Under the pieces are notes generated by a model, which was not told the origin of the DNA, made no database searches, and was given only the letters and a program-made list of their open reading frames with translations. A stretch of DNA of 64,000 nt from Octopus vulgaris (taxonomy: Eukaryota), in NCBI GenBank assembly GCA_951406725.2, contig OX597825.1, positions 75,454,001-75,518,000 of the forward strand, read 5' to 3'. Below are positions 1 to 62,144 of this stretch, in pieces (within the stretch, counting starts at the first letter, position 1; the number at the start of each line of letters is the position of its first letter). Position numbers and translations under genes: made by a program.

Positions 1-872
1 AACCTCGCCTGCGTAAGGAAAACTGGAATAAAAATCCCTTTGCAAAAGCTGCTTTCTGTTGGTGTTTGGGGAACGTAGAACACCCATATCTCAGTTTTTA
101 TTTAGACCATGTTTTGACTCCGGTACTTTTGTTTGTTGATGACTTTGTGAGTGAACATAAACTGACTGGTATAAAATACTTGAATTACATCATTGATAAT
201 GTAAGCAAAGAAGAACTACGATGGTACAACAGAGATGCTGTCATCTTTGATGCTTTAAAGCATCAGTTATTCACCCAGGAAGAAAGTGTGTTGGAAACTA
301 CATTGTCTTCTCTGCTCTCTATTCTTTCCATTCTAGAAAAACCACCTTCCAAACTAGAAAATATAAGCTATAACCGTTATGATGAAATATTTACCTCAGT
401 CCTGTACAACGCACAAATAGAAAACCAGCTATCATTTCGGCGTGTGTATACTAGTTATATTCCTAAATTCATTCACCTTATGGGAATGACAGTTGTTCGA
501 CACACGAAACAATTTCTACAACTTGTAGAATCTTATTTAGAAATTTATGATGGGCCACACGAAGTTGCTCGGTTAAATGTACTTGCTAGTCTCAAAAGCT
601 TCATTAAAGTTTCATGGCCAAGAATACAACACCATAATGATAAATTGGTAAAAATACTACTCAGGCTTGTCTATGATGTAGCTGTTGAGGACGTCTATGT
701 AATTCCTAATGATGTGAAACAGAAAGTAATCAGTGAAGTTGTAGAGATTTTAGGTATTTTAAGAATGCTGAATAAAGAACGGGTGGAGAATCTTTTGCAT
801 GCTGTCAGCGGAAAATTGAATATTCCTGCATTTCAAGAGGCTGTGGAATCTGTCTTGAATATTTGTATTTAA
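1..872 (+). CDS. TTI2: TELO2-interacting protein 2 (TTT complex), C-terminal part; 5'-partial, runs off the window start
   Basis: Frame open from position 3 to TAA at 870-872: PRLRKENWNKNPFAKAAFCWCLGNVEHPYL...LLFVDDF...YNRDAVIFDAL...YLEIYDGPHEVARLNVL...SWPRI. This matches, from memory, vertebrate TTI2 motifs (W..NP..K..F.W.L; YNRA.V; YLEVYDGPEEEARL; TWPRV). The TTG start at 66 in the ORF track is not the real start. Confidence 0.93.
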   Translation, partial: PRLRKENWNKNPFAKAAFCWCLGNVEHPYLSFYLDHVLTPVLLFVDDFVSEHKLTGIKYLNYIIDNVSKEELRWYNRDAVIFDALKHQLFTQEESVLETTLSSLLSILSILEKPPSKLENISYNRYDEIFTSVLYNAQIENQLSFRRVYTSYIPKFIHLMGMTVVRHTKQFLQLVESYLEIYDGPHEVARLNVLASLKSFIKVSWPRIQHHNDKLVKILLRLVYDVAVEDVYVIPNDVKQKVISEVVEILGILRMLNKERVENLLHAVSGKLNIPAFQEAVESVLNICI

Positions 873-13565: not shown

Positions 13566-13620
13566 ATGTCACTTTTTTACAGCTGGAGTATTTTAATTTT
13601 CACCTGTCTTCATTTCTCAA
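13566..13620 (+). CDS. Novel type I membrane receptor, coding exon 1 (signal peptide MSLFYSWSILIFTCLHFS)
   Basis: ATG in good context (CAACCATGT); hydrophobic stretch; donor GTAAGT at 13621 in phase 1, joining exon 2 to give ...HFSNIQA-TKW (AxA-like cleavage site IQA). Confidence 0.75.
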
Positions 13621-22850: not shown

Positions 22851-23041
22851 ATATCCAGGCTACAAAATGGAAAGTAACCATTTGCTTGTCTCAAGTACAT
22901 AACAGGGAAGTTGACATTTCTTTGAACAATATGCACAAAAGATCAAGATTTGAAAATAAAAATGAAATCAACATTCAATTTGAATTAGAGAGTACAGTAA
23001 AGCCAAATACTCTTCATGTTGATGTGACACAAAGCTATAGG
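22851..23041 (+). CDS. Novel receptor exon 2 (repeat 1, first part: IQATKWKVTICLSQ...HVDVTQSYR)
   Basis: Polypyrimidine tract plus CAG acceptor; 191 nt open; GTAAGT donor; phase 1 to 0. Confidence 0.85.
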
Positions 23042-24555
23042 GTAAGTAAATTAAAACAAATATTCACTCACATACATACACATACAAACATACACATCTA
23101 CTTGTACACCTGCATTATCAAAAGTTATGCTATTTTCAAAGAAATAAGTTGAAACTGGTATTCAGGAACTGCATTGACATGACATATGTTCTTTATATCT
23201 AAATATAGTTTTGGATTCAAAGAGCTTCAAAATTTTCATTCCAAACTGGATTTGAACTCTTGACCCCTTTTTATTAGTTCTGTCACTGAACTATGTGATT
23301 AAGAACTTCTGTAAACAATAATATTAAATTAATTAGTTAGAAAGCTAGAAAAGAATTATATATTTAAGTTTGTGGGGGGGGGGTAACCACAGGCATATTT
23401 GTATGGTAAAAAGTTTGCTTCCCAACCACCTGGCTTCAGGTTCAATCCCATTGCAAGTGCCTAATAAGCATAGCACCAGGCCAAAAATAGCCTTGTGAGT
23501 GGATTTGGTAGAAGGAAACTCGAAGAAGACCATCACCACCATCATCATCATCATCATCATCATATGATGGTTGTCATCATCATCATTTTCTGACAAATAA
23601 TATCTGTGAAAGCAATTCAACATTAAACTGAAAGATCGCTCCATACTTTTTAGTAGAGTAAATGTATACATACATACATGATAATGATGGCCATCCACTC
23701 ATGACTGAGAAAAACCCTTACTGACTTTCAGGAATATTTTGTGTTCAAGACTACCTTATACTTTACATTTGCAGCTCCTCTGTTGGTGACTAACAAGCCC
23801 TGCTCTTGACAAACATACATGACTGCAAACATTGCAGACCAAGCTTCCCCACTCATTAAACTAGCAGTGCGTTTTGAGCTTAAATTCTTCATAAAGAACA
23901 TGTGCTCTTTAAAAGGAATGGACTCCTTCCTTTACCTGTCTCCCTTATCCATGGCAATGGTAAGCATTGCTATCCAAGTCAGCCTCCTGCATTTCACAGG
24001 CCTTTAATGAGGACTTTACACAGTACTTAAATCGCAGTTTTGGCTTCTGCTGGGGTCACTTTCAACCAACAAGTTTCCCACATAGCATCTGTTTAGGGAT
24101 CTTTCTATCATTCATTCTAACAAGGTGTCCAGTCCAACATAACCAGTGTTTGTGCACTGTTGCCTCAATACTTGGGATATTGGCTTTCCTCAGGACCTGT
24201 GTATCTGGAATTTTTAAGGTCCAGCCAACATTCAGAATATGTTTCAGGCATCTCTGATGGAAGCATTCAAGGACCCTTTACATGACGTTTGTAAAGGGTT
24301 CATGTCTCACATGAGTGTGTATTTAGTCAATTCAATGAAGAAACAACTAAAATAAACAAACAAATAAAACATTTAAAAAGAAAAGAGAATAAAACGAATG
24401 TGAGAACATGGACAAGAATTATATTAGTTTGATGTTTGGTCAAAGAAGAGAATTTTTAAGGTTTCAAGTATGGTTCTTTGTCAGAAAAGAGAAATGGAAA
24501 AGTCCAAAGAAGGAGAAAGAAAATCACTAGGGCTAATGTGTAATTACACCCTGAA

Positions 24556-24598
<43 letters not shown>

Positions 24599-24611
24599 TA
24601 CGTACATACAA

Positions 24612-24651
<40 letters not shown>

Positions 24652-25662
24652 TCATCATTGTTTAACACCTGCCTTCTAATCTAGCATGGGTGGGAGGGCT
24701 TCACAACAACTGGCCAGGCTGAAGCCTGCCCCAAACTTCTGTGACTGTTTTGGCAGGATTTTTACAACCGGATGCCCTTCCTAACACCAACCACTCAGCA
24801 GAGTGGACTTAGTGCTTTTTACATGGCACAGGCACAGGTGAGGCAAGTAGTGCATTTTATGTGGCATAAGCACAAGCAAGGTGAGTTTTGGCAAGGTTTT
24901 TACTGCTGAATGTATTTCCAAACACCAACCACTTTACAGTGCAGACTGGGTGCTTTTAAGTGGCACTTGCACTGACAGGGTCACCAAGTACTTGTAAAAC
25001 ATAAAAAAAAACTTTCAAGCGGGGAAGAGGCATTGGAAGAGGTGATGAGGGAAAGGTTATAGTGAGACAGATACAGGTGTCTTGCAGTAGAGGAAGTACA
25101 AGGTTACCCAGCTGGAGAGAGAAAGAAGACAGAAACTGCTGTGCTACCACAAAGAAAATACACGGTTGTCCAACCTGAGAGAAGTGCAGGAGGAGAGAGT
25201 GGGAGACATTAGGACAGAGACAGTGGCAAAATGCTCACAATGGAACAGGGATCAGAATATAAATGGGATGGTTGAGTAAAGGAAAAGAGAGATATAGATG
25301 GTGGCAAGTATCAGGGAATACCCTTGAGGTTAAAATGTTATAATATAAGTGGCAGGATACTGAAGGGAGTATGATTAAAGAGTGCGATGCCCTGATACAG
25401 GACGCATTAGTAGCAGGTATTTTGACTCAGCATCCATCCAAATCAACGTACTGCTTCTATGCTCGCGATGCATTATAAAAATATTATCCAATCAAGAACA
25501 AATTAGATTATTATAAACATAAGTCATACAGTCGTATAATCACAAATCCAAATACTGATATATTAAATACATTTACTGTGTATATTTCAAATGGTTGTAT
25601 GATAAACTTTCACACAGATACCATTGCCTTCAGCCATTTACCAGCAACATGCACTCATGTGT

Positions 25663-25720
<58 letters not shown>

Positions 25721-25895
25721 ATGCATGTGTGTGTAGGCTATTCCAAACTGATTTTAAATATGAAACGGAGTACTAGCTGTATGCTGCCATTATTGTCATC
25801 GATAGCATGATGATGGTGGTGATCACCACCATCACCGTCATCATTAACAGACTACTTTGCACTGTTGTGAACTTTGTTGAATTTTTTTATTCTAG

Positions 25896-25980
25896 GCAAC
25901 TGTTCAAATTGAAGGCCATCATGAAAAATACATTGTCGAGTGCCAGTCAGCTTGTTCTAGAGAATTAAAATTAGAAAAAT
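25896..25980 (+). CDS. Novel receptor exon 3 (ATVQIEGHHEKYIVECQSACSRELKLEK)
   Basis: TTTTTTTATTCTAG acceptor; 85 nt; GTAAGA donor; phase 0 to 1. Confidence 0.8.
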
Positions 25981-31459: not shown

Positions 31460-31662
31460 GGACACAATGGAACCTTGAAGTTATACGTAGTGAGACAAAT
31501 GACAAACGCAGGTTTCCTTTTGAAATAAAGCCTCATGGTGAAAAATATATTACTATTAGAAAGAATTCTAAAACATCAAATAAATCATTCTTCCTTCCAA
31601 GGGAAATGAATAGAAAGTCAAAAATAGAGTTGACTACAGGAAAATTTTGGTCAAATACAGTT
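31460..31662 (+). CDS. Novel receptor exon 4 (repeat 2, first part: WTQWNLEVIRSE...ELTTGKFWSNTV)
   Basis: TTTTTCTATTACTTTCTAG acceptor; 203 nt open (absent from the ORF track for lack of a start codon); GTAAGT donor; phase 1 to 0. Confidence 0.85.
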
Positions 31663-32304
31663 GTAAGTAAACCCTTTATTTTCTCTCATTTAGAAACACG
31701 TATAACTGGTTCACTTGACTTCAAAGTATTACTTGTTTTCAGGGTTTCTGGATTTGAGTAAATGAAATACATTATATACATGTATGCACATACATAATTC
31801 AGAAAAACATACAGATGCATATTGATAATTTCTTTTTATAAAGCAGGTGGTTTGAATGAATGACTCACTCTTCTGTGTTCACTTCATGCCAGGTTTAAAT
31901 TTAACATTTATCCTTTTTGTTGTTTAGCAAAATGAATAATAGCAAAATGCTTTTTCAAGTCTGTATTCTCAATCCTAAAATCTGTTTCTTTTTTCTTGAT
32001 CAAAAGAAGCATCATTAATTATGCCTTTTCGTGCTATGTTAACATGTTGAAATATTGGTTTCACATAGTGGCACAAGGCCAGCAATTTCAGGGGAGGTGG
32101 TAAGTCGATTAAATCAACTCTATTGCTCTTACTTATTTCATCAAACCTGAAAGGAAGAAAGGCAAAGTTGACATCAGTGGAATTTGAACTCAGAGCATAA
32201 GATGGATGAAATGTAGGTACCGGTTTCCATCACTACCTCTGTGATGACAAGACCAGGCTCACTCCTTGCTGCCATCATCTGTGGATTAATATAGTTCCTT
32301 TATC

Positions 32305-34600
32305 ACCATCATCATTTAGCATATGTTGTCCATGCTGGCATGGGTTGGATGGTTTGATCAGGGCTGGTAAGCTGGAAGGCTGCACCAGACACCAATATGA
32401 TTTGGCATGATTTCTACAGTTGGATGCCCTTCCTAATGCCAACCACTCTGAGAGTGTAATGGGTGCTTTTACATGCCACGGGCATGGGTGCCATTTGCAT
32501 GACACCAGTATCTGCCATGATATAATGTCAAAGTTCTTGGTCATTGCCTCTGTGAAGCCCAACACTCGAAATGAACTCAGCCACTTTGCTTCTGTGTGGC
32601 TTAATGCTTGAATGAAACTCAGCCACTTTGCCCCTGTCAGGCCCAATGCCTAAAAGGTGTTCTGTACTTTCCACCAGCACAGGTTCCAGTTACATGACAC
32701 CAGTATCAGCTAAGACTACAATTTCACTTGTCTTGACAGGTCTTCAAACACAGCATATCACCAAAGGTCTCGGTCACAAATCATTGCCTCTGTGAGGCCC
32801 AAAGTTCAAAGGTCGTGCTTCACCACTTCGTCTCATGTTTTCCTTGGTCTACCTCTACCACAGGTTCCCTCCATAGTCAGAGATCAGCACTTCTTTATGC
32901 AGCTGTTCTCATCCATATGCATCACATGACCATACCAGTGCAGCCATCCCTCTTGCACACCACATCTGATGCTTCTTATGCCTAACTTTTCTCTCAAGTT
33001 GCTTACACTCTGTCAAACATGCACACTAACATTGCACATCCAGTGAAGCATACTGGCTTCATTTCTTTCAAGCCTATGCAGTCCTATTTACAATATGGGT
33101 GACTAGATCATGACCAACACCACTAGATATTTTAAGCATCTCAGCAGCCAATTCCTGGTGGTCTGGAGGCTTTCCATGCCTTCATATCCCTAATTGATTT
33201 ATCCACCAAGTAACTGTCAAATCAGGTAGCTGGTACCTGAATTGGATTAACATTTGGCGGACTCTCCTCCCATTCACTCTCCACATTCAGCAGTCTTTCA
33301 TAATGACATTTCCAAGCCTCTTTCTTAGCAGAATCATTAAATGCAAGTGCACCATCATCCATGTGGACACATTTCTCTCCTGTGACATCATGATTTTCTC
33401 TTACACACTGTCTTGCAATCCGAAACACTTTAGTTCTTTGGTCCTCACATCACTGAACATAGGCAAATTTCTTTTCTGCTTCTCCCCTGACTTGATATAT
33501 CTGTCCTCTAGTTTCCCTTCTGGTAGTCTGATACAGTTACCTGCTAACCCCACTCTTCCAGGTTTTCCAGGCCTGTTTCTTTGCTCTGATGACCTTGTCT
33601 ACTGCATTCTTCCACCATGACGTTACCCTAGGCCTGGATGGGACTTTGCACCAGCCACAAATTTGGTCTGTTGCACTCTGCAAGCTGCCCCACAGGAATT
33701 CCCAGTAGCCCGCTATGTCACAAGTCTGTAGCTCCTCCTCCCTCTCATCAAATTTCTTAATTAAGATGTCCCTAAATCTCTGACCATGTGAGGGATTCAA
33801 AAACTTCCAAATCCTTCTTTTCCAGATTGTTCTGCTTCTTGGCATCCTTCTGGCCTGGAGTCTAAAATCACTAATGACTAGTCTGTGCCTGTGGGTACAT
33901 TCTTCCCCAGGGAGGGTCTTTGTGTTTAAGAGCAACCATGCATCCCACTGTCTGGTGAGAATGTAATCAATCTGGCAAGCACAGTCCCCTGATTGGTAGG
34001 TTACCAGGTGGCTAGCTGGCTTCCTGAAGTTGGTGTTGCATATCAATAGGTCATTTGCATCCCAGAACTCCAGTAGCCTTGTTCCTTCTTCATTTTGGGG
34101 ACTAATTCCATGGCCTCATGGACACCATGGAAGATACCAGTCTGCTGTCCAGCATGCCAATTGAAATCCCCAGCCACAAAGCTGAGATCATTGTCACTCA
34201 TCTTTGAGGTCGCCTACAGAATAGTTTCATAAAAGTGGTACTTCTGTTCATTTGGTAGGCCTGCTTGTGGGGCATAGGTAGAGATAATTGTCGCTGTACT
34301 ATTATGCAAGACTAGCTTTAGCTTAAGCACTCTATCATACACTCTGACTACCTCTATGACATTATCCACCCATTTCTCAGCAAGAAGTATGCCCACACTA
34401 CCTACCCCATCACTGTTACCTTCCCAGAAGATTTCACACCTATGTGTCTTACCTGTGAGGAATCTGGCTGAAGCTCCTCTCCATCTTACCTCTTGGATGC
34501 AGCATACATCAACATGCTGCCATTCAAGCATCTCAACAATCTCACTAGACCTCTTCAATGTGTTTTCACTGACAGTGCCAACTCTGAAAACTGGGAATGG
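32305..34600 (-). mobile_element. Internally deleted RTE LINE: AP-endonuclease domain, linker, 3' end and tail
   Basis: ORF 34214..34558 (VDVCCIQEVRWRG...GVGSVGIL...IISTYAPQAG) and ORF 33537..34046 (NTNFRKPASHLVTY...QIDYIL) are APE motifs; most of the RT is missing after a junction near 33085-33100; 3' UTR and tail at 32305-32800. Confidence 0.9.
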
Positions 34601-35011
34601 AATGTGAGAGAGAACATGGGAAGGAGTGATGGTGTTGTTTAATTTTCTTAATAAGTAAAGAATCTGAACAGCTCAGCTCCTGTAAACATGGTCTTGTTTG
34701 ATTATTTATAAGGCCATCAATATATGAAAGAATATTTCAGTTGAAGTAGAGATAGAATTGCTGAGTTGATGGCTAAGTTAAGTATTTCTCACCTTTGTAA
34801 TTGCTGGATCAAGAACAAATTGTCACCTATCTAAACCCATGTAATTCCCAGATAGGACTTAGGTCTGGATGGAACTTTGCATCAGCCACAGATTTAGTTT
34901 GTGGCACTCTGCAGGCTGTCCTGCAGGATCTCCCAGTAGCCCTCTATGTCACAAGTCTGTTGCTCCTCTCTCTCATTAATTTTGTTGTTTTTCCTTTTAC
35001 TTTTGCTTTAG

Positions 35012-35105
35012 GTCAACCTGAAGAATATGGAAACTTCCAGCATATACTCCTGCATGTATACTCTTAATCAAAGTACTTATTATCATGAATGTTCATTGAC
35101 AAATA
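35012..35105 (+). CDS. Novel receptor exon 5 (VNLKNMETSSIYSCMYTLNQSTYYHECSLTN)
   Basis: Long pyrimidine tract plus TAG acceptor; 94 nt; GTAAGT donor; phase 0 to 1. Confidence 0.85.
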
Positions 35106-36503: not shown

Positions 36504-36727
36504 ATTCAACGTGGAGAATAGAACTAACTTCTAATTCCGAGCAAATTAATAGTATGGAAATGACATTAAATTTTCACGTGCCTGAGAGAGAAGGTTATCG
36601 ACATCTAACATTCAAAAGGCTTGTTTATCTCCCCAAATTCTTTGCTGTTACCAGTTACGAAAATATCAGCACTGGTGTGGTTAAAGTATCCTTTGGAGAT
36701 AATATCAAATCTATGGACATATCCAAA
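36504..36727 (+). CDS. Novel receptor exon 6 (repeat 3, first part: NSTWRIELTSNS...GDNIKSMDISK)
   Basis: TTTTCTTCTTTCTTCTCTAG acceptor; 224 nt open (overlaps ORF 36554..36775); GTGAGA donor; phase 1 to 0. Confidence 0.85.
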
Positions 36728-37779
36728 GTGAGAATTTTTACTTTCTTGAATTCTGTGATTGTATTTTTATTTTAATTATTTGTTTACTTATTTATTGTAA
36801 TTGTTGCTACTGTTATTGTTGTTGTTAAAGTTCTGGTCAGCCTTGATTGAGAAAACTTTGGGTTAGAGACATTCCAGGAATGGCCATCATGTTTTCCCAA
36901 ATGCATTCATCCAAGACTTTCATTCACTTAGTCCTTCTTTCTAAGACAGTAGGGTGTTATTCAAAGAAGATTTGGCATCTATTTCTTGCAAGTCAACTTA
37001 TTACAAAGATGCTTCCCCTCATTAACTGGAGTTATTTTGTATGTGTATCAGTGAGTGTTTGTGCATGTGTGTATGTGTTTCTCTCTATGTGTGTGTGTGT
37101 GTGTGTGTGTGCGCGCACGCGCGTGTGTGTGTGTGTGCATGTGTATATGTTTATAAATGTGTCTACATTTGTAGGGACCTTGCTTGGCTCTGTCTGTGAT
37201 TCAAAAGTGAATCCACTCACTCGTTGCTTGTCAAACAAACCTGAAATCCCTTTGTGTTTGCATCTCTTACTCTGGATGATTAATGGGAAACACTCAAACT
37301 TGCTGGTCACTAAAGGGTCAGTCCTTTGTTTAGGATTTGACCTACACATGTTTATATATGTATGTATGTATGTATGTTCATATATCCATATACATACGTA
37401 TGTACGTACATACACATGTACATACATACATATGCACAGACATACGCATACATACATATAGTGGACTCTCCTGTCATAGAAAACAAATGAGTGATCTGCA
37501 ATTCATTTCTTGCTGAACAATTTGCACAGATGATCTGTTTATAGTTATCAAATGTTTGTGCAGTACATGAGCACACTCCCTCCATAAACCCGATGTTGCC
37601 TTTACAGGTGCACATTGTGCTACACATAAGACATCAAAGTAATCATAGTGCTATGTGATTTGCTCAAGAACATAAGCATCACCTGATCCAGGAATTGAAA
37701 CCTCGATTTCATGATAGTGAGTGCAGCATCCTATCCACTTGGCCACACAGTTTCATGTATACAACCTGTATAAGAGTGT

Positions 37780-40330
37780 TGGGGAAATTGTGAACCAGTA
37801 GCCTCTGCTTGACACCTCAAATTTGTTCAGGAGTAGGGCAATGTTTGTTGATCCCTTCCATCTTCTTTATGCTGATGGTCAAGCTGAAGGCTTTATATTC
37901 AGTAGAAAACTGGTTTATAAGTTCCTGAGCTTCTTCTAAGGAAGTTGCTACTAGTGCAGTATTGTCTGTGAAAAGTAGATTATGAATGATAATGGTATGT
38001 AGCAGTGTTTTGGCTTTTAAAAGCCAGTGATTTAATAACCAACCACTTGTTTGAAACTGGAATTTAACACCATTTTCTATGACACTAAGAGCATACTTCA
38101 GCATCACTGAAAAGAAGAGTGCAAGGAAAACAGGGAACATGACACAACCTTGCTTTGCACTATTTGTAACATCAAAAGAAATTGAAGATTCCCTGCTGAA
38201 CACAACAATAGCTTTCATTCCCTCATGAAAGAAAATAACATTCAAAATCTTGTCAGGTGTACTATGTTATTTCAAAACTTTCCAAATTGCTTGCTAGTTA
38301 AAAATCTCGAAGGCCTTAGTAAGGTCAATGAACACAATGAACAGTTCCTGATTTTTCTCACATACTGTTATATCTTTATGGATAAACAAATACACTGCAA
38401 CAGCATAATAACAATATAATCGAAACAAACGGTAGTAACCACACACAACATAACAACAATCTTTTATGAACCAATAGTCCAACTCGCTAACTCAAACTGT
38501 AAACTTTGAACTCCAACTTTGACTATTAACCCACGACTGTGGAGCTAGCACAAACTACCCTCCAACACAAATTGCCTCACTTGCTCAGACTGCCATTATT
38601 TTTATGTAGTGGTCCAGTCCATTCTTGTCAGGGAGCATCATACTCTTGCACAGCATGTACCTTCTCAGTAACCTGAAGGAAGGAAAAGAGTCATCAGTAC
38701 CACAGCCAGAGTGAAATCTGCACTGTGATTCTGGATAGATGTCATTTATGATATGTTAGATGATCCTGTCAAGAATGAATCTATTGAGAGTCTTACCAGC
38801 AATTTACAGAAGAGATATCCCACAATGATTATCACAAACACTTTTGTTCTTATAGAGGTATTGAACTGAGGCATCCTTAAAGTCTGTGGTGTATGACCTA
38901 CTCTTAAAATATTTATGAAAAGGTTGTGTAAATTTTTGAGAAACTTCTGTCCACCATGCTTTAGAGTTCAGGCAGGACAGCATGCTTGCCAGGTGCTTTA
39001 CAGAAGAGAGTTGTTCAACGGAATTCACAACTTCCAGGAAGGTTGACTCCAGAGACAATTCCAGTATTTCAGCATAATGTGGAATAGACATTATGACATC
39101 ATCATCAGTGACTGAGGTAGAGTTCAAAGTGGTTGTTTTATCATTTCAGGATGTCAGATTTGTCAGTTAACAGTGTCTCTCCATTGGATGAAAAAAATTG
39201 CAGTAACACCATGCTCTTGATGACTGTACACTTTCTTGAGGCCATTATAGAAAGCTTTAGGGTCCTATCTGTCTGCCGCATCTTGGAGTTCAGTAGCCTC
39301 GGATAACAACCTGGCTTTCTTCATCTGTCTAAGAGTACACTGGACCTAGCCTTTGAATTTCTTATATGCATTCTTTTACTGGATGAGCTCTTATCATTGA
39401 TCCATCTTTTATGAGAGCTGTGCCTTTTATCTATCAATTGTGGAACATCTGTACTGTTATCATTGAACTAATATTGATGTTTATAAGCAGGAAGTCTGAG
39501 AAACTCTAGGGAGGCAGAGTGTGATGTATCATGCAGAGCCTTCCAAGATTATTGAATGTTAACACTGATATCAACAGTTTTCAGTGCAGTGCCCAGCTTG
39601 TTAGAGAGTTCAGCTTGCTTTTCAGTAGTTTTCAAAGGCAGAACACTAATATGTTTAGGCCACTGATAACTTTTGTAGTCTCGTGTGTTTTTTGATGGAG
39701 CATAGCCTTACTATGAAGAAGGGAATGGTCAGAGAGATAGTAGGTGCTATGAAAGGAATGTGTAATGTAAAAGTCCCTTATGTCTTGCTTCTTAGTGAAA
39801 ACATGGTCTATGAGATGTCAATCCTTAGATCTAGGATGCATCCAGGATGTCTTGCAACAATTTTGCTGTTGAAAGAAGGTATTTGTGAAGCTTAGATAAA
39901 ATTCCTTGTAGATGGAGAGCATGTGCTGACTGTTAGAGTTCATTCAACCTACACCATGACAACCAAGTACATGTCTGATAATCAGTACCAGCGTGAGCAC
40001 TACAGTCAGCATAAAAATAAGTTTATCCCTATGTTAACAACTGGAGATGACATTATGAAGCTGGTTGTAAAAGTCATGATTTATCTGTTTAGAGATGGCC
40101 GTGATTGGAGCATAGCAACTGACAAAAGTGTTGCAATCAATTTGTAATGTTAGTGTCGTGATGTGATCAGAAATACCTTTGGATAGAAAGGGAAAGGATC
40201 AAATTATTCCTACCTTGATAGAGAGACCAACACCAGAGTGGCATAGCTCATTCTCATTTATTCCAGACCAGAAAAAGGCATATCCACCTTTCCTTTCTTC
40301 AATGACGATCCTACAAAACAATTTTCATTG
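37780..40330 (-). mobile_element. Old RTE/BovB-like LINE relic (second LINE family)
   Basis: ORF pieces FDVTNSAKQGCVMFPVFLALFF...NLLFTDNTALVA, DNHCGISLL and FIVFIDLTKAF; heavily disrupted. Confidence 0.8.
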
Positions 40331-40400
40331 AGTGCAGCTATGTTAATTTAAATATATAATAAAACTAATCTGCTTAAAATTTTCTTTTAAAATTTTTCAG

Positions 40401-40497
40401 ATTGCCATGACAAGAATACTTACTGGTGAAGAATATGGTTGTTTTAACATAAACAGGACAAAATCACATCTTCAGTATTCCTGCAAAGTGCTGAAAC
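40401..40497 (+). CDS. Novel receptor exon 7 (IAMTRILTGEEYGCFNINRTKSHLQYSCKVLK)
   Basis: TTTTTCAG acceptor; 97 nt; GTAAGT donor; phase 0 to 1. Confidence 0.85.
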
Positions 40498-44511: not shown

Positions 44512-44738
44512 GCAAAAATTGGCTGTTGAAAGTTATTTCCTCTGAAAAACATAAGCAAAAATTTGTCATAGAAATATTTCAAGGCAACTTATCATCTGTC
44601 TCCAGAAACTTAACATGGAATCATTTTAGTGAATATGGACTCAATTATATTAAGCATTTTAGTCTGAAGACATACGAAGTTGATGAAATCACAAGTCTAA
44701 AACTCAGTTTCTTTTATAAATCTCTGAAAATCAATGAA
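44512..44738 (+). CDS. Novel receptor exon 8 (repeat 4, first part: RKNWLLKVISSE...YKSLKINE)
   Basis: TTTATATTTCAG acceptor; 227 nt open (overlaps ORF 44526..44756); GTAAAT donor; phase 1 to 0. Confidence 0.85.
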
Positions 44739-44898
44739 GTAAATATATTTTCTTAATCTATTTTAAAATATCTAAAGATGATTAGGAGGCAGACTGCATG
44801 TTTTAAGGGAGTAAATTTGATACTTCAAAATGGCTGGATCCAGATTCTTAGTCAAACTAACTTCCTTTCTAGTTCTTTTCTAAAATATTCTTATAATA

Positions 44899-45345
44899 GG
44901 CACAGGTATGGCTGTGTTGTATGAAGCTTGCTTCCCAACCACATGGTTCTGGGTTCAGTCCCACTGTGTGGCACCTTGGGCTAGTGTCTTCTACTCCATC
45001 CCTTGGCTGACCAAAGTCGTGTGAGTGGATATGATAAACAGAAACTGGATTTTATATGTATATATGTGTGTGTATGTGTGCATGTGTGCATGTGTGCGTG
45101 TGTGTATGCGTGTGTGTATGCCTTTGTGTCTGTGTTTGTTGCCCCATCACCTCTTGACAACCTGTAGTTGGGGTGTTTACATCCCTGTAACTAAGCAGTT
45201 CAGCAAAAGAAACAAATAAAATAAGTACTAGGCTTAAAAAATGTCCTGAGTTCAATTTGTTTGACTAAAATCCTTCAAGGAATTACTCCAGCATGGCCAC
45301 AGTCAAATGACTGAAACGAGTAAAAGAATAAAAAAATAAAGAATA
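44899..45345 (+). mobile_element. tRNA-derived SINE family A
   Basis: GGCACAGGTATGGCTGTGTTG...GGGTTCAGTCCCACTG...CCAGCATGGCCACAGTCAAATGACTGAAAC. Confidence 0.85.
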
Positions 45346-45509
45346 ATGATGGACAGCCCTAGACCTGTCCCTCACTACACACACACAACCCACCCTATCC
45401 CCTTTCAATTCTGACTCTCCTTTTTTCTCAACCTTATCACTGACCCTTTCCTTCAACCCTGTTCACTGCCTTATTCCTGCCCCCCATCCTCCCCTCCTAT
45501 TTATCATCC

Positions 45510-45926
45510 ACATTCAAATGGAAATTGTAGTTGTGGTACCTGTGCCGGTGGCACGTAAAAAGCACCATCCGAACGTGGCTGATGCCAGCGCCGCATTGAC
45601 TGGCTTCCATGCCAGTGGCACGTAAAAAGCACCATCCAAACGTGGCTGATGCCAGCGCCTCATTGACTGGCTTCCGTGCCAGTGGCACGTAAAAAGCACC
45701 AACTGATCGTGGCTATTGTCAGCCTCCCCTGGCACCTGTGCTGCTGGCACATAAAAAGCACCCACTACACTCACGGAGTGGTTGGCGTTAGGAAGGGCAT
45801 CCAGCTGTAGAAACACTGCCAGATCAGACTGGAGCCTGGTGCAGCCTCCTGGCTTCCCAGACCCCGGTCGAACCGTCCAATCCATGCTAGCATTGAAAAT
45901 GGACGTTAAATGATGATGATGATGAT
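45510..45926 (+). mobile_element. RTE 3' UTR/tail copy with internal ~66-bp repeats
   Basis: Four GTGGCACGTAAAAAGCACC-type units, then GGCGTTAGGAAGGGCATCCAGCTGTAGAAAC...GGACGTTAAA(TGA)n. Confidence 0.85.
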
Positions 45927-46904
45927 TCCTCTGCCTAGAATCATCTCCCATTGTCTTTTCTGTTTCCCTCTGTTATCGGAGCCAGTTTAAGGCCTTAACT
46001 TTGCAAGATACAAGGTAATCATCATCAGGATTGGTGCCATGGCATAAGCACTCAATCCATTCTGTAATGTAGTTGGCATTAGGAAGGGCATCCAAACCAT
46101 AGAAACCATGCCAAAGTAGGCACTGGTGCATGATGAAGCCTTCCAATTTGTTAGATCCTCTCAAACCATTTGACCTATGCCAGCTTGGAAAACGAATGCT
46201 AAATATGATAGTGATGGAAGTGGTGATGAAAGCAGTGGTGGAGTGATACTGTTGTTGCTGCTGGAGGTGGTGGAAGGAGTGGTGATAGTTGTAGTAGTGG
46301 CAGCATTAGTGGTGGTGGTGGTGGTGGTGGTGATGATGATGTTGATGACGACGATATTGGCAGCGGAAACGACGCTTGTGTCAATGTGATCAGCAAAACC
46401 CCCTCTCTCACAAAGTGCCACCCTACCACCTGAACAACTGAAAATACATCTCCAATATTGTTTAATTCTTACTGGTCTTTTCTGCTTCACTGCATATAGG
46501 TACCCCAAATGGTACATCTTATGGCTGAAAGCAGTGGGAGTAGTGTAAATTGTTGACTGTTCTAATGATCCTCAGAACTAAATCCATATCCACTCTTTTA
46601 ATTAAAATCAAAAATTCTAATAACGCATTGATGGATATGTCTAGTTAGGAGAAAAGTCAAGCAGTAGAATCTATTTATCAAACTTTGGTGACATAAATAT
46701 TATTGGTTGCTCAACTGATTGGGTGGTTGACTTGGAGGGAGGTGGGATGGAAAGTATTTAAAGTGTCTCCCCCATGAAACGTTGACACAAATAGAGAGTG
46801 CAAGGACAAACAACATCAACACCTTGACAAGAAACTGAAGCAAATCATAATCAGTGTTCAATCAGGTGAGTTATATTAATGATATTTCAAATCTATCATT
46901 TCAG

Positions 46905-47004
46905 ATAAGTTTGATCAACAATTTCACAGAGATTAAGTTCAGAACAAATGGAGGAAACAAACTTCAGGATGACTCGGTGATTGAATTTATCCGAATAACA
47001 AAAG
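46905..47004 (+). CDS. Novel receptor exon 9 (ISLINNFTEIKFRTNGGNKLQDDSVIEFIRITK)
   Basis: CTATCATTTCAG acceptor; 100 nt; AAG|GTATAT donor; phase 0 to 1. Confidence 0.8.
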
Positions 47005-50682: not shown

Positions 50683-50727
50683 GGAAAGAAGAGAAACCAT
50701 CTCATATGAGCCGCAACATGACAATAG
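50683..50727 (+). CDS. Novel receptor exon 10 (juxtamembrane stalk GKEEKPSHMSRNMTI)
   Basis: TTTACTCTTTACTTTTCAG acceptor; 45 nt; AG|GTAATT donor; symmetric phase 1-1, so it could be skipped in frame. Confidence 0.7.
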
Positions 50728-54237: not shown

Positions 54238-54301
54238 TTATTGTCCTCCTTGCTGTCATCGTGTTCTTCTTGATCATCATCAGCATCGCATTCGTTGCCA
54301 G
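54238..54301 (+). CDS. Novel receptor exon 11 (transmembrane helix VIVLLAVIVFFLIIISIAFVA)
   Basis: TTGTTTTCTTCTTCAG acceptor; 64 nt encoding 21 uncharged, almost entirely hydrophobic residues; CAG|GTAAAA donor; phase 1 to 2. Confidence 0.85.
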
Positions 54302-61120: not shown

Positions 61121-61509
61121 GGGCTTCTTTCTGTTTCCATCTACCATATCCACTTGCTAGGCTCCGGTTGGCCTGAGACTATAAGTAGCACATCACAAAA
61201 CAAGCTTATTGTGTTTGTGTATGTGTATATGTTTGTATACTTCATTTTGTTTTTTGCTTATATTTTAAGAGTTGAAGCATGTAAATAGAAGGGAAGGATT
61301 AAATAAAAATGAATTTTAAAAAAAATCTTTGAACTTTGTTAAGGGATAACTTAAATGTTTTGCACCACATACAGACATATTTCTGAATTATTATTATTAT
61401 TATTTCATAACTATAGTTCTAAGGCTAACTCTGAATGTTTCTATTAAAAGTATATACATAGATATATGTATGTATATATATATATATATATATATATTGG
61501 TTATTGCAG

Positions 61510-61720
61510 ATGCAAAATGACAAAAAATAAGAACAAACAGAAAGGTAACACATCAACTCTAAAAGTCAGTGGTGAAGATAATGGCTGTTGGAACCTGCCA
61601 TATGCAAGTCAAGAATCAGGCTGTGTCCTGCGAAACTCTGAAGAAATTTATGCAAACATGAATCCAAGCTTAAAAATGCCACCGAGACTCCATGATAGTG
61701 AAGGATATTGGGGACTATAA
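61510..61720 (+). CDS. Novel receptor exon 12 (cytoplasmic tail RCKMTKNKNKQK...YASQ...EEIYANM...EGYWGL*)
   Basis: TTATTGCAG acceptor in phase 2, matching the TM exon; basic stop-transfer residues; TAA at 61718-20 overlapped by AATAAA at 61720-25. Confidence 0.8.
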
Positions 61721-62144
61721 ATAAAAACCCTTCCTTAGCCTGTTTATAATCCTGATGTTGAATAACTTTACACACAATCTATCATATATACATGCTGACA
61801 ATAATTTCAGTGTTGAGCAATTTGGTCTTTTTCTTCTATATTTGGGAAATTTTCCTTTTTTAAGTCAGCCATGTTATTAACATGAAAATTTGAAAAATAT
61901 ACTACATTACCTTTTTTCACTTTTTTCAGTCTTAGACTGCGTCCATGCTGGGGCACCGTCTTGACGATAAATATTTTCTAAAAGATGTATTTTTAACTTA
62001 AAAAGAAATCTAAAGATTAAAAAAATGTTTCAAAAATGATTCTTTTTGTTTTAATTTATTTTTTAATTAATTCATCATCATCGTCATTATCATCACCACC
62101 ACACCACCACCAACAACAACAACACCACCATCATTATTATTATT

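Follow-up and report, generated by a model that had tools for sequence, protein, structure and literature searches.

A clustered octopod gene family with predicted PLAT/LH2-like ectodomains and tyrosine-bearing cytoplasmic tails

To our knowledge, the immune and self/non-self recognition receptors of cephalopods are poorly known. The variable receptors described in invertebrates use Ig, LRR, lectin, EGF or fibrinogen domains. Proteins with PLAT domains in tandem, such as LOXHD1, are cytosolic, as is the PLAT domain of polycystin-1. Among non-catalytic signaling receptors, CD28 has a single IgV ectodomain, and DAP10 combines a minimal ectodomain with a transmembrane (TM) Asp.

Like the octopus family described here, the Alr proteins of Hydractinia are single-pass receptors of an invertebrate whose genes lie in a cluster and whose tails carry various tyrosine motifs and come in alternative forms; they use Ig/Fn3 domains together with ITAM/ITIM (PMC9546547), whereas the octopus gene has neither motif. 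PTC1/GRC and PTC2 of Biomphalaria are likewise molluscan clusters of divergent single-pass TM genes. They are genetically tied to parasite resistance (PMC7494358, PMC13712769); homology to the PTC proteins was seen neither in the HMMER search described below nor among 18 related proteins. By analogy, the octopus family probably works like Alr or PTC, yet it belongs to neither of them, nor to the CD28/DAP10 family. What CD28 and DAP10 have in common with the octopus gene is a non-catalytic tail with a single Y-x-N-M string (PMC5852076); the octopus gene differs from both in its four-domain ectodomain, the lack of a TM Asp and a Met that was gained in one lineage. The Y-x-N-M likeness is thus one of convergence or chance, not of membership.

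Gene model and ectodomain fold

The window, i.e. the whole stretch of 64,000 nucleotides of Octopus vulgaris DNA that was analysed, contains on its + strand a gene model (13566-61720) with 12 exons, an open frame of 531 amino acids and AG/GT at 11 of 11 introns; 512 of the 531 residues are identical to O. sinensis XP_029643656. Exon 1 (13566..13620) encodes the signal peptide, which appears as a helix (residues 2-18) in the predicted structure. In the ectodomain of about 420 residues, a two-exon module (phases 1-0-1) is present four times: domain 1 (22851..25980; exons 22851-23041 and 25896-25980), domain 2 (31460..35105; exons 31460-31662 and 35012-35105), domain 3 (36504..40497; exons 36504-36727 and 40401-40497) and domain 4 (44512..47004; exons 44512-44738 and 46905-47004). 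A stalk exon (50683..50727) and a TM exon without charged residues (54238..54301) follow. All 10 N-glycosylation sequons lie on the extracellular side, and six of the 15 residues following the TM segment are Lys or Arg, forming a basic juxtamembrane stretch. Judged from its sequence, the protein is presumably a type I single-pass protein with the tail inside.

The coding part of the terminal exon (61510..61720) contributes a cytoplasmic tail of 69 residues after a split Arg codon: the TM exon ends at 54301 in phase 2 (donor GCCAG|gt), and splicing to 61510 (acceptor ttgcag, cag|A TGC) builds the Arg of the sequence RCK. Contigs from three of four runs labelled 'RNA?', each from another study, meet the window at 61507 and carry foreign letters upstream (209 in X1 and X2, about 210 in X4), and the contig of the fourth run begins inside the terminal exon. 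The join lies at 61507 instead of 61510 because CAG is common to the acceptor and the end of the TM exon; the pattern is as would be expected of a spliced transcript. These 'RNA?'-run contigs use the terminal exon of the model, not a different one, and the exon is nearly invariant across the four runs. In O. bimaculoides, one isoform model ends in a 16-residue tail without Tyr.

An AlphaFold model built on an alignment of 18 sequences consists of four all-beta domains and a disordered tail (mean pLDDT 72.5). When the model was compared with 48,161 chains, each of the nine best structural matches covered domain 4 (D4) and was a PLAT/LH2 domain (Z 7.3-10.7), the next row scoring 6.0; lipoprotein lipase 6u7m ranked first (Z 10.7, rmsd 3.1, 106 aligned residues), and 15-lipoxygenase reached Z 10.1. 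For D1, a separate model of domains 1-2 of paralogue P0030 was searched: the top eight matches were all PLAT (Z 6.2-8.9; best match rmsd 2.5, 91 aligned residues), whereas Ig chains reached at most Z 4.9 as against 8.9. D1 and D4 are therefore predicted, from these models, to have the PLAT/LH2 fold; the beta-sandwiches D2 and D3 may be considered PLAT-like from the exon module that they have in common with D1 and D4. Profile-profile comparison of D1-D4 with hhalign gave weak scores (E 0.016-0.31). The Pfam PLAT family matched none of three proteins at E <= 1 and none of 18 at E <= 0.1, Pfam scans yielding noise from TM segments only, and a sequence search of the PDB returned a single match at E 0.99. 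ESM Atlas leads to CUB and CDCP1 (0.77; nothing for D4) were weak and not adopted; Foldseek searches with multi-domain models indicated no clear family, horse lipase and PLRP2 appearing at probability 0.99-1.0. The predicted fold of D4 and of the paralogue D1 is like that of known PLAT/LH2 proteins (6u7m, PLRP2 2oxe, the lipoxygenases 1lox and 3o8y, Rab6IP1 3cwz), but the octopus protein differs from these in its four presumed tandem extracellular units on a type I receptor without an enzyme domain, at an identity of 6-21% and without a Pfam match.

A divergent family in octopods

Single-protein genome searches, whose locus counts are lower bounds, yielded 16 domain-2 exons at 15 or more loci, ten of them on contig 12, two on contig 10 and three on contig 26. 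The contig 12 loci fall into three groups and represent clustered, divergent single-pass genes. HMMER returned 29 matches among 1.84 billion representatives, and all relatives whose taxonomy was looked up (18 proteins and 10 HMMER matches) are named Octopus or Argonauta (Argonauta hians). The database records examined are labelled 'uncharacterized' or 'hypothetical', except for one apparent fusion model. Several records have no TM helix; a TM exon nevertheless exists in the genome at two loci of the P0013/P0036 type, and the tail exon is read in a different frame by P0013 and by P0014. Some annotated isoforms thus seem to skip the TM exon and would be secreted. The open-access literature yielded nothing on LOC106873229, six other LOC ids or an octopus PLAT receptor family; subscription papers or supplements may mention them.

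Domain number varies among the paralogues by module gain and loss. Paralogue L057/L059 (G000:C12:84046972, 84049774) has a duplicated domain 2 exon and hence five domains, as in P0009 and P0010; P0017 and P0019 are without domain 4. The next paralogue (L007-L012, L039-L046; G000:C12:75537-75716 kb) lies ~20 kb downstream of the window's gene on the same strand, spans ~175 kb and contains two copies of a domain 3b exon; the record CAI9731339, which clusters with its tail, is named 'ribosomal L4, mitochondrial-like' and is likely a fused gene model. About 4.7 kb beyond the stop of the window's gene, a stretch of ~0.9 kb (L002:1499-1717, equivalent to L005:2390-2608, G000:C12) duplicates the terminal exon at 66% DNA identity; its acceptor is intact, a TM exon of its own is absent, and a 25-nt difference shifts the frame to give a 38-residue tail without sites A and B (see below). 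The copy would be a pseudo-exon or else serve as an alternative terminal exon. Stalk and tail exons are duplicated in tandem a second time on contig 26 (L019:3906-5380 and L020:1639-3135), with no clear TM exon match among the matches listed. Upstream of the cluster, the open frame of TTI2 (window 3-872; Pfam Tti2, E 2e-6) may serve as a synteny anchor for squids.

Divergence is concentrated in the distal ectodomain. Median pairwise dN/dS values (Nei-Gojobori over paralogue pairs, excluding pairs with dS <= 0.02 or saturation) are 1.07 for D1a (11 exons), 0.95 for D2a (16 exons) and 0.41 for D4a (10 exons). Three disjoint close D1a pairs, picked after inspecting the data, have an excess of replacements (Fisher p=0.004); one close D4a pair has dN > dS as well. 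Of the 19 substitutions that separate O. vulgaris from O. sinensis, 15 affect D1-D2 and none affects the TM segment or the tail (p=1e-6), and identity to O. bimaculoides rises from 40% in D1a to 77% in D4a. The distal domain is hence fast-evolving, although relaxed constraint would likewise account for a dN/dS near 1. The domain 1 exon of the window's gene (22851-23041) is the most divergent among 11 paralogous exons; the second Cys of a pair that the other ten retain is gone, and the O. sinensis orthologue has lost both.

Tyrosines of the cytoplasmic tail

The tail contains three tyrosine motifs in a single frame, at the positions given in a preliminary description of this DNA: YASQ (61601-61612), EEIYANM (site A, 61640-61660) and GYWGL (site B, 61703..61720 including the TAA at 61718-61720; GYWGL itself 61703-61717). 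It is identical to that of the O. vulgaris-named record CAI9731337 and of O. sinensis XP_029643656, and 64% identical to that of O. bimaculoides XP_014775987, which has an 11-residue deletion and retains EETYSNM and GYWGL*. Fifteen tail exons were recovered from the genomic stretches examined, of which 14 were aligned as DNA, the insertion-broken L022 being excluded.

The Tyr of site B is the family's most conserved: it is encoded by TAT in all nine coding exons and lost in four of the five non-coding ones (stop or frameshift), the sole non-coding copy that keeps it adjoining the window's gene. Its column is one of two invariant among 59, with an estimated neutral retention of 0.001-0.002, the paralogues being non-independent samples in these tail statistics. 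The residues downstream are derived, YAEL, YEEL, YAMP, YVMQ, YAEP and YLKP occurring in paralogues as against YWGL here, and in seven of the nine coding exons the site lies no more than 5 residues from the C-terminus. The C-terminus itself is a truncation because the sequence VE*LYTQSIIY in the 3' UTR is a decayed copy of EQLYTQP, which is repeated in Argonauta. This relic of the ancestral distal tail (61721..61801) is in frame, contains two further stops and is homologous to DIEQLYTQPIKY.

The Tyr of site A is present in 9 of 13 coding exons, while at site C, which is not coding, the Tyr codon has survived in 7 of 13; by this comparison, site A retention alone appears close to drift level and not clearly above it. 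Relatives of site A are found in Argonauta (DIYQNL) and in a paralogue (DVYENI), so the Tyr with its Asn, in an acidic-Y-x-N context, is ancestral and goes back to Argonauta. The Met at +3 is derived: it occurs in none of the 13 other tail exons, and its ATG codon stands where three have ATA (Ile). Within the alignment, this Met, YASQ and the WGL end are restricted to the lineage of the window's gene, and the residues at +1 to +3, on which SH2 specificity depends, are not conserved at either site A or site B. Other Argonauta motifs are DGLYEEF and the repeated EQLYTQP; the 196-residue tail of P0027 (GAB1606038) carries DIEQLYTQP-type repeats in tandem, which resemble the YxxP arrays of Cas-family substrates.

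How readily such motifs arise by chance was estimated by shuffling the tail 100,000 times. In 1.4% of the shuffles each of the three Tyr fell within the motif list of the preliminary description, in 3.5% within a broader list, and YxNM occurred in 1.5%; of 270 ectodomain Tyr, 51 and 96 fit the two lists (19-36%). The motif evidence is modest to weak, because the list was compiled after viewing the sequence and ectodomain Tyr fit it often. The context of the tail Tyr is acidic: 52 of them (13 tails, first 8 residues skipped) have on average 0.96 acidic residues at -1 to -4, compared to 0.56 in shuffles (0 of 5000 reached 0.96) and 0.49 for ectodomain Tyr. The genome contains 36 SH2 matches. ITAM and ITIM patterns (YxxL/I-x6-9-YxxL/I or [ILVS]xYxx[ILV], as defined in PMC9546547) match neither the tail of the window's gene nor that of its orthologue; one Argonauta tail fits both patterns and one paralogue an ITIM pattern.

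The preliminary description had read all three tyrosines as docking or trafficking motifs of a receptor with CD28-type output. Its non-catalytic, tyrosine-phosphorylated receptor is upheld with respect to the single-pass topology, the spliced tail exon and the ancestral origin of two of the three Tyr, phosphorylation being presumed. The expectation of a conserved tail next to a diverging ectodomain holds for the Tyr of sites A and B and the fast distal domain; it fails for YASQ, the Met and WGL, and the tail as a whole is no better kept than D4 (73-77% identity to O. bimaculoides). The CD28/DAP10-type YxNM is kept in O. bimaculoides as YSNM, but is confined in the family by its Met. STAT3 docking by YASQ is not supported: O. 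bimaculoides has lost the motif by deletion, and none of the 13 other tail exons has its Tyr codon. The same applies to WGL-COOH as a PDZ ligand, an end unique to this lineage where a stop shortens a longer ancestral tail, and to the ITIM-like reading. The juxtamembrane Cys is confirmed in RCK by the phase-2 splice, but only 3 of 14 exons have it, 8 having Tyr at that position. A co-stimulatory output of the CD28 type is accordingly not a property of the family, the likeness to CD28 is mostly coincidence, and the CD28/DAP10/STAT3/PDZ reading exceeds the evidence; the main news is the PLAT-repeat receptor family.

Possible functions of the family

The most plausible reading, to which we assign a probability of roughly 0.55, is an octopod family with four PLAT/LH2-like domains that probably acts as a non-catalytic recognition receptor with a variable tip and an SH2-docking tail. 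The protein could operate in the following manner: the fast-evolving PLAT-like domain at the tip would recognize a variable ligand, either foreign or on a cell surface; once the receptors cluster, a cytoplasmic tyrosine kinase would be able to phosphorylate both sites, A and B; and SH2 adaptors docking at the phosphorylated sites would relay the signal. Phosphorylated Y-x-N is bound by Grb2-type adaptors and YxxM by p85; a Grb2-type adaptor at site A would be the best guess, and p85 may bind in the window's gene only. The outputs of the paralogues may differ via stops, frameshifts and point changes in one tail exon, and annotated isoforms without the TM exon would be secreted.

The same tyrosine docking could serve adhesion or self-recognition by gametes, neurons or skin, with an endogenous ligand, which we consider unlikely, if well worth keeping in mind. 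Gamete-recognition proteins also have fast-evolving distal domains and tyrosine tails, and the YxxP repeats in Argonauta and one paralogue suggest cytoskeletal output, such repeats leading to outputs of the Crk/Nck type. The Hydractinia allorecognition proteins also combine fast-evolving distal domains with tyrosine tails (PMC9546547). TM-less isoforms and birth-and-death turnover, however, are presumably commoner in immune families. Rather improbable is an endocytic lipid or lipoprotein receptor, in which PLAT domains would bind membranes or lipid particles and the terminal Tyr would be a sorting signal, not an SH2 site. The top structural matches, PLAT domains of lipases and lipoxygenases, are what such a receptor would lead one to expect; GYWGL*, present also in O. 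bimaculoides, fits GYxxPhi-COOH, and the position of site B near the C-terminus in most coding exons agrees with a sorting signal. In LAMPs and CD63, however, GYxxPhi-COOH is a lysosomal signal within about 10 residues of the TM segment, whereas the octopus motif lies about 65 residues away and is absent in paralogues; moreover, the +3 residue of site B is Pro or Gln, which AP-2 disfavours, in five of nine exons (YAMP, YAEP, YLKP and twice YVMQ), and the acidic context and fast distal evolution better fit kinase sites and variable ligands.

Drift in disordered tails of an adhesion or structural membrane protein, with motifs that are there by chance, would explain the frequent truncations and frameshifts and the scarcity of invariant columns (2 of 59), and one in every three or four random Tyr fits some motif; it is already disfavoured and has little probability left, given that the site B Tyr is retained where coding and lost where not, and that Tyr motifs are shared with Argonauta. 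Least probable, and only marginally to be reckoned with, is CD28/DAP10-like co-stimulation with p85 and Grb2 at YANM, STAT at YASQ and a PDZ anchor. YxNM is indeed found in the orthologues of three Octopus species, and DAP10 YINM binds p85 and Grb2, the CD28 motif being YMNM (PMC5852076); but the loss of YASQ in O. bimaculoides, the Met that no other tail exon shares and a protein with neither a TM acidic residue nor a single Ig ectodomain argue against it.

A recognition receptor with variable tip and docking tail hence remains our preferred reading. More tentatively, and at somewhat below even odds, the family may represent an octopod recognition system derived from the PLAT module of lipases and lipoxygenases, with ~15 clustered genes, four PLAT repeats outside the cell, a positively selected tip, secreted forms that skip the TM exon and one tail exon in which stops and frameshifts retune the phosphotyrosine output. 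The 15 genes, the two tyrosines and the hypervariable domain form a defined set that is directly testable. If this proposal is true, a scaffold of tandem extracellular PLAT domains, subject to diversifying selection, would be a new receptor building block, and the family would be a PLAT-based counterpart of the Ig-based KIR, LILR and Alr receptors, making it a candidate system by which cephalopods recognize non-self.
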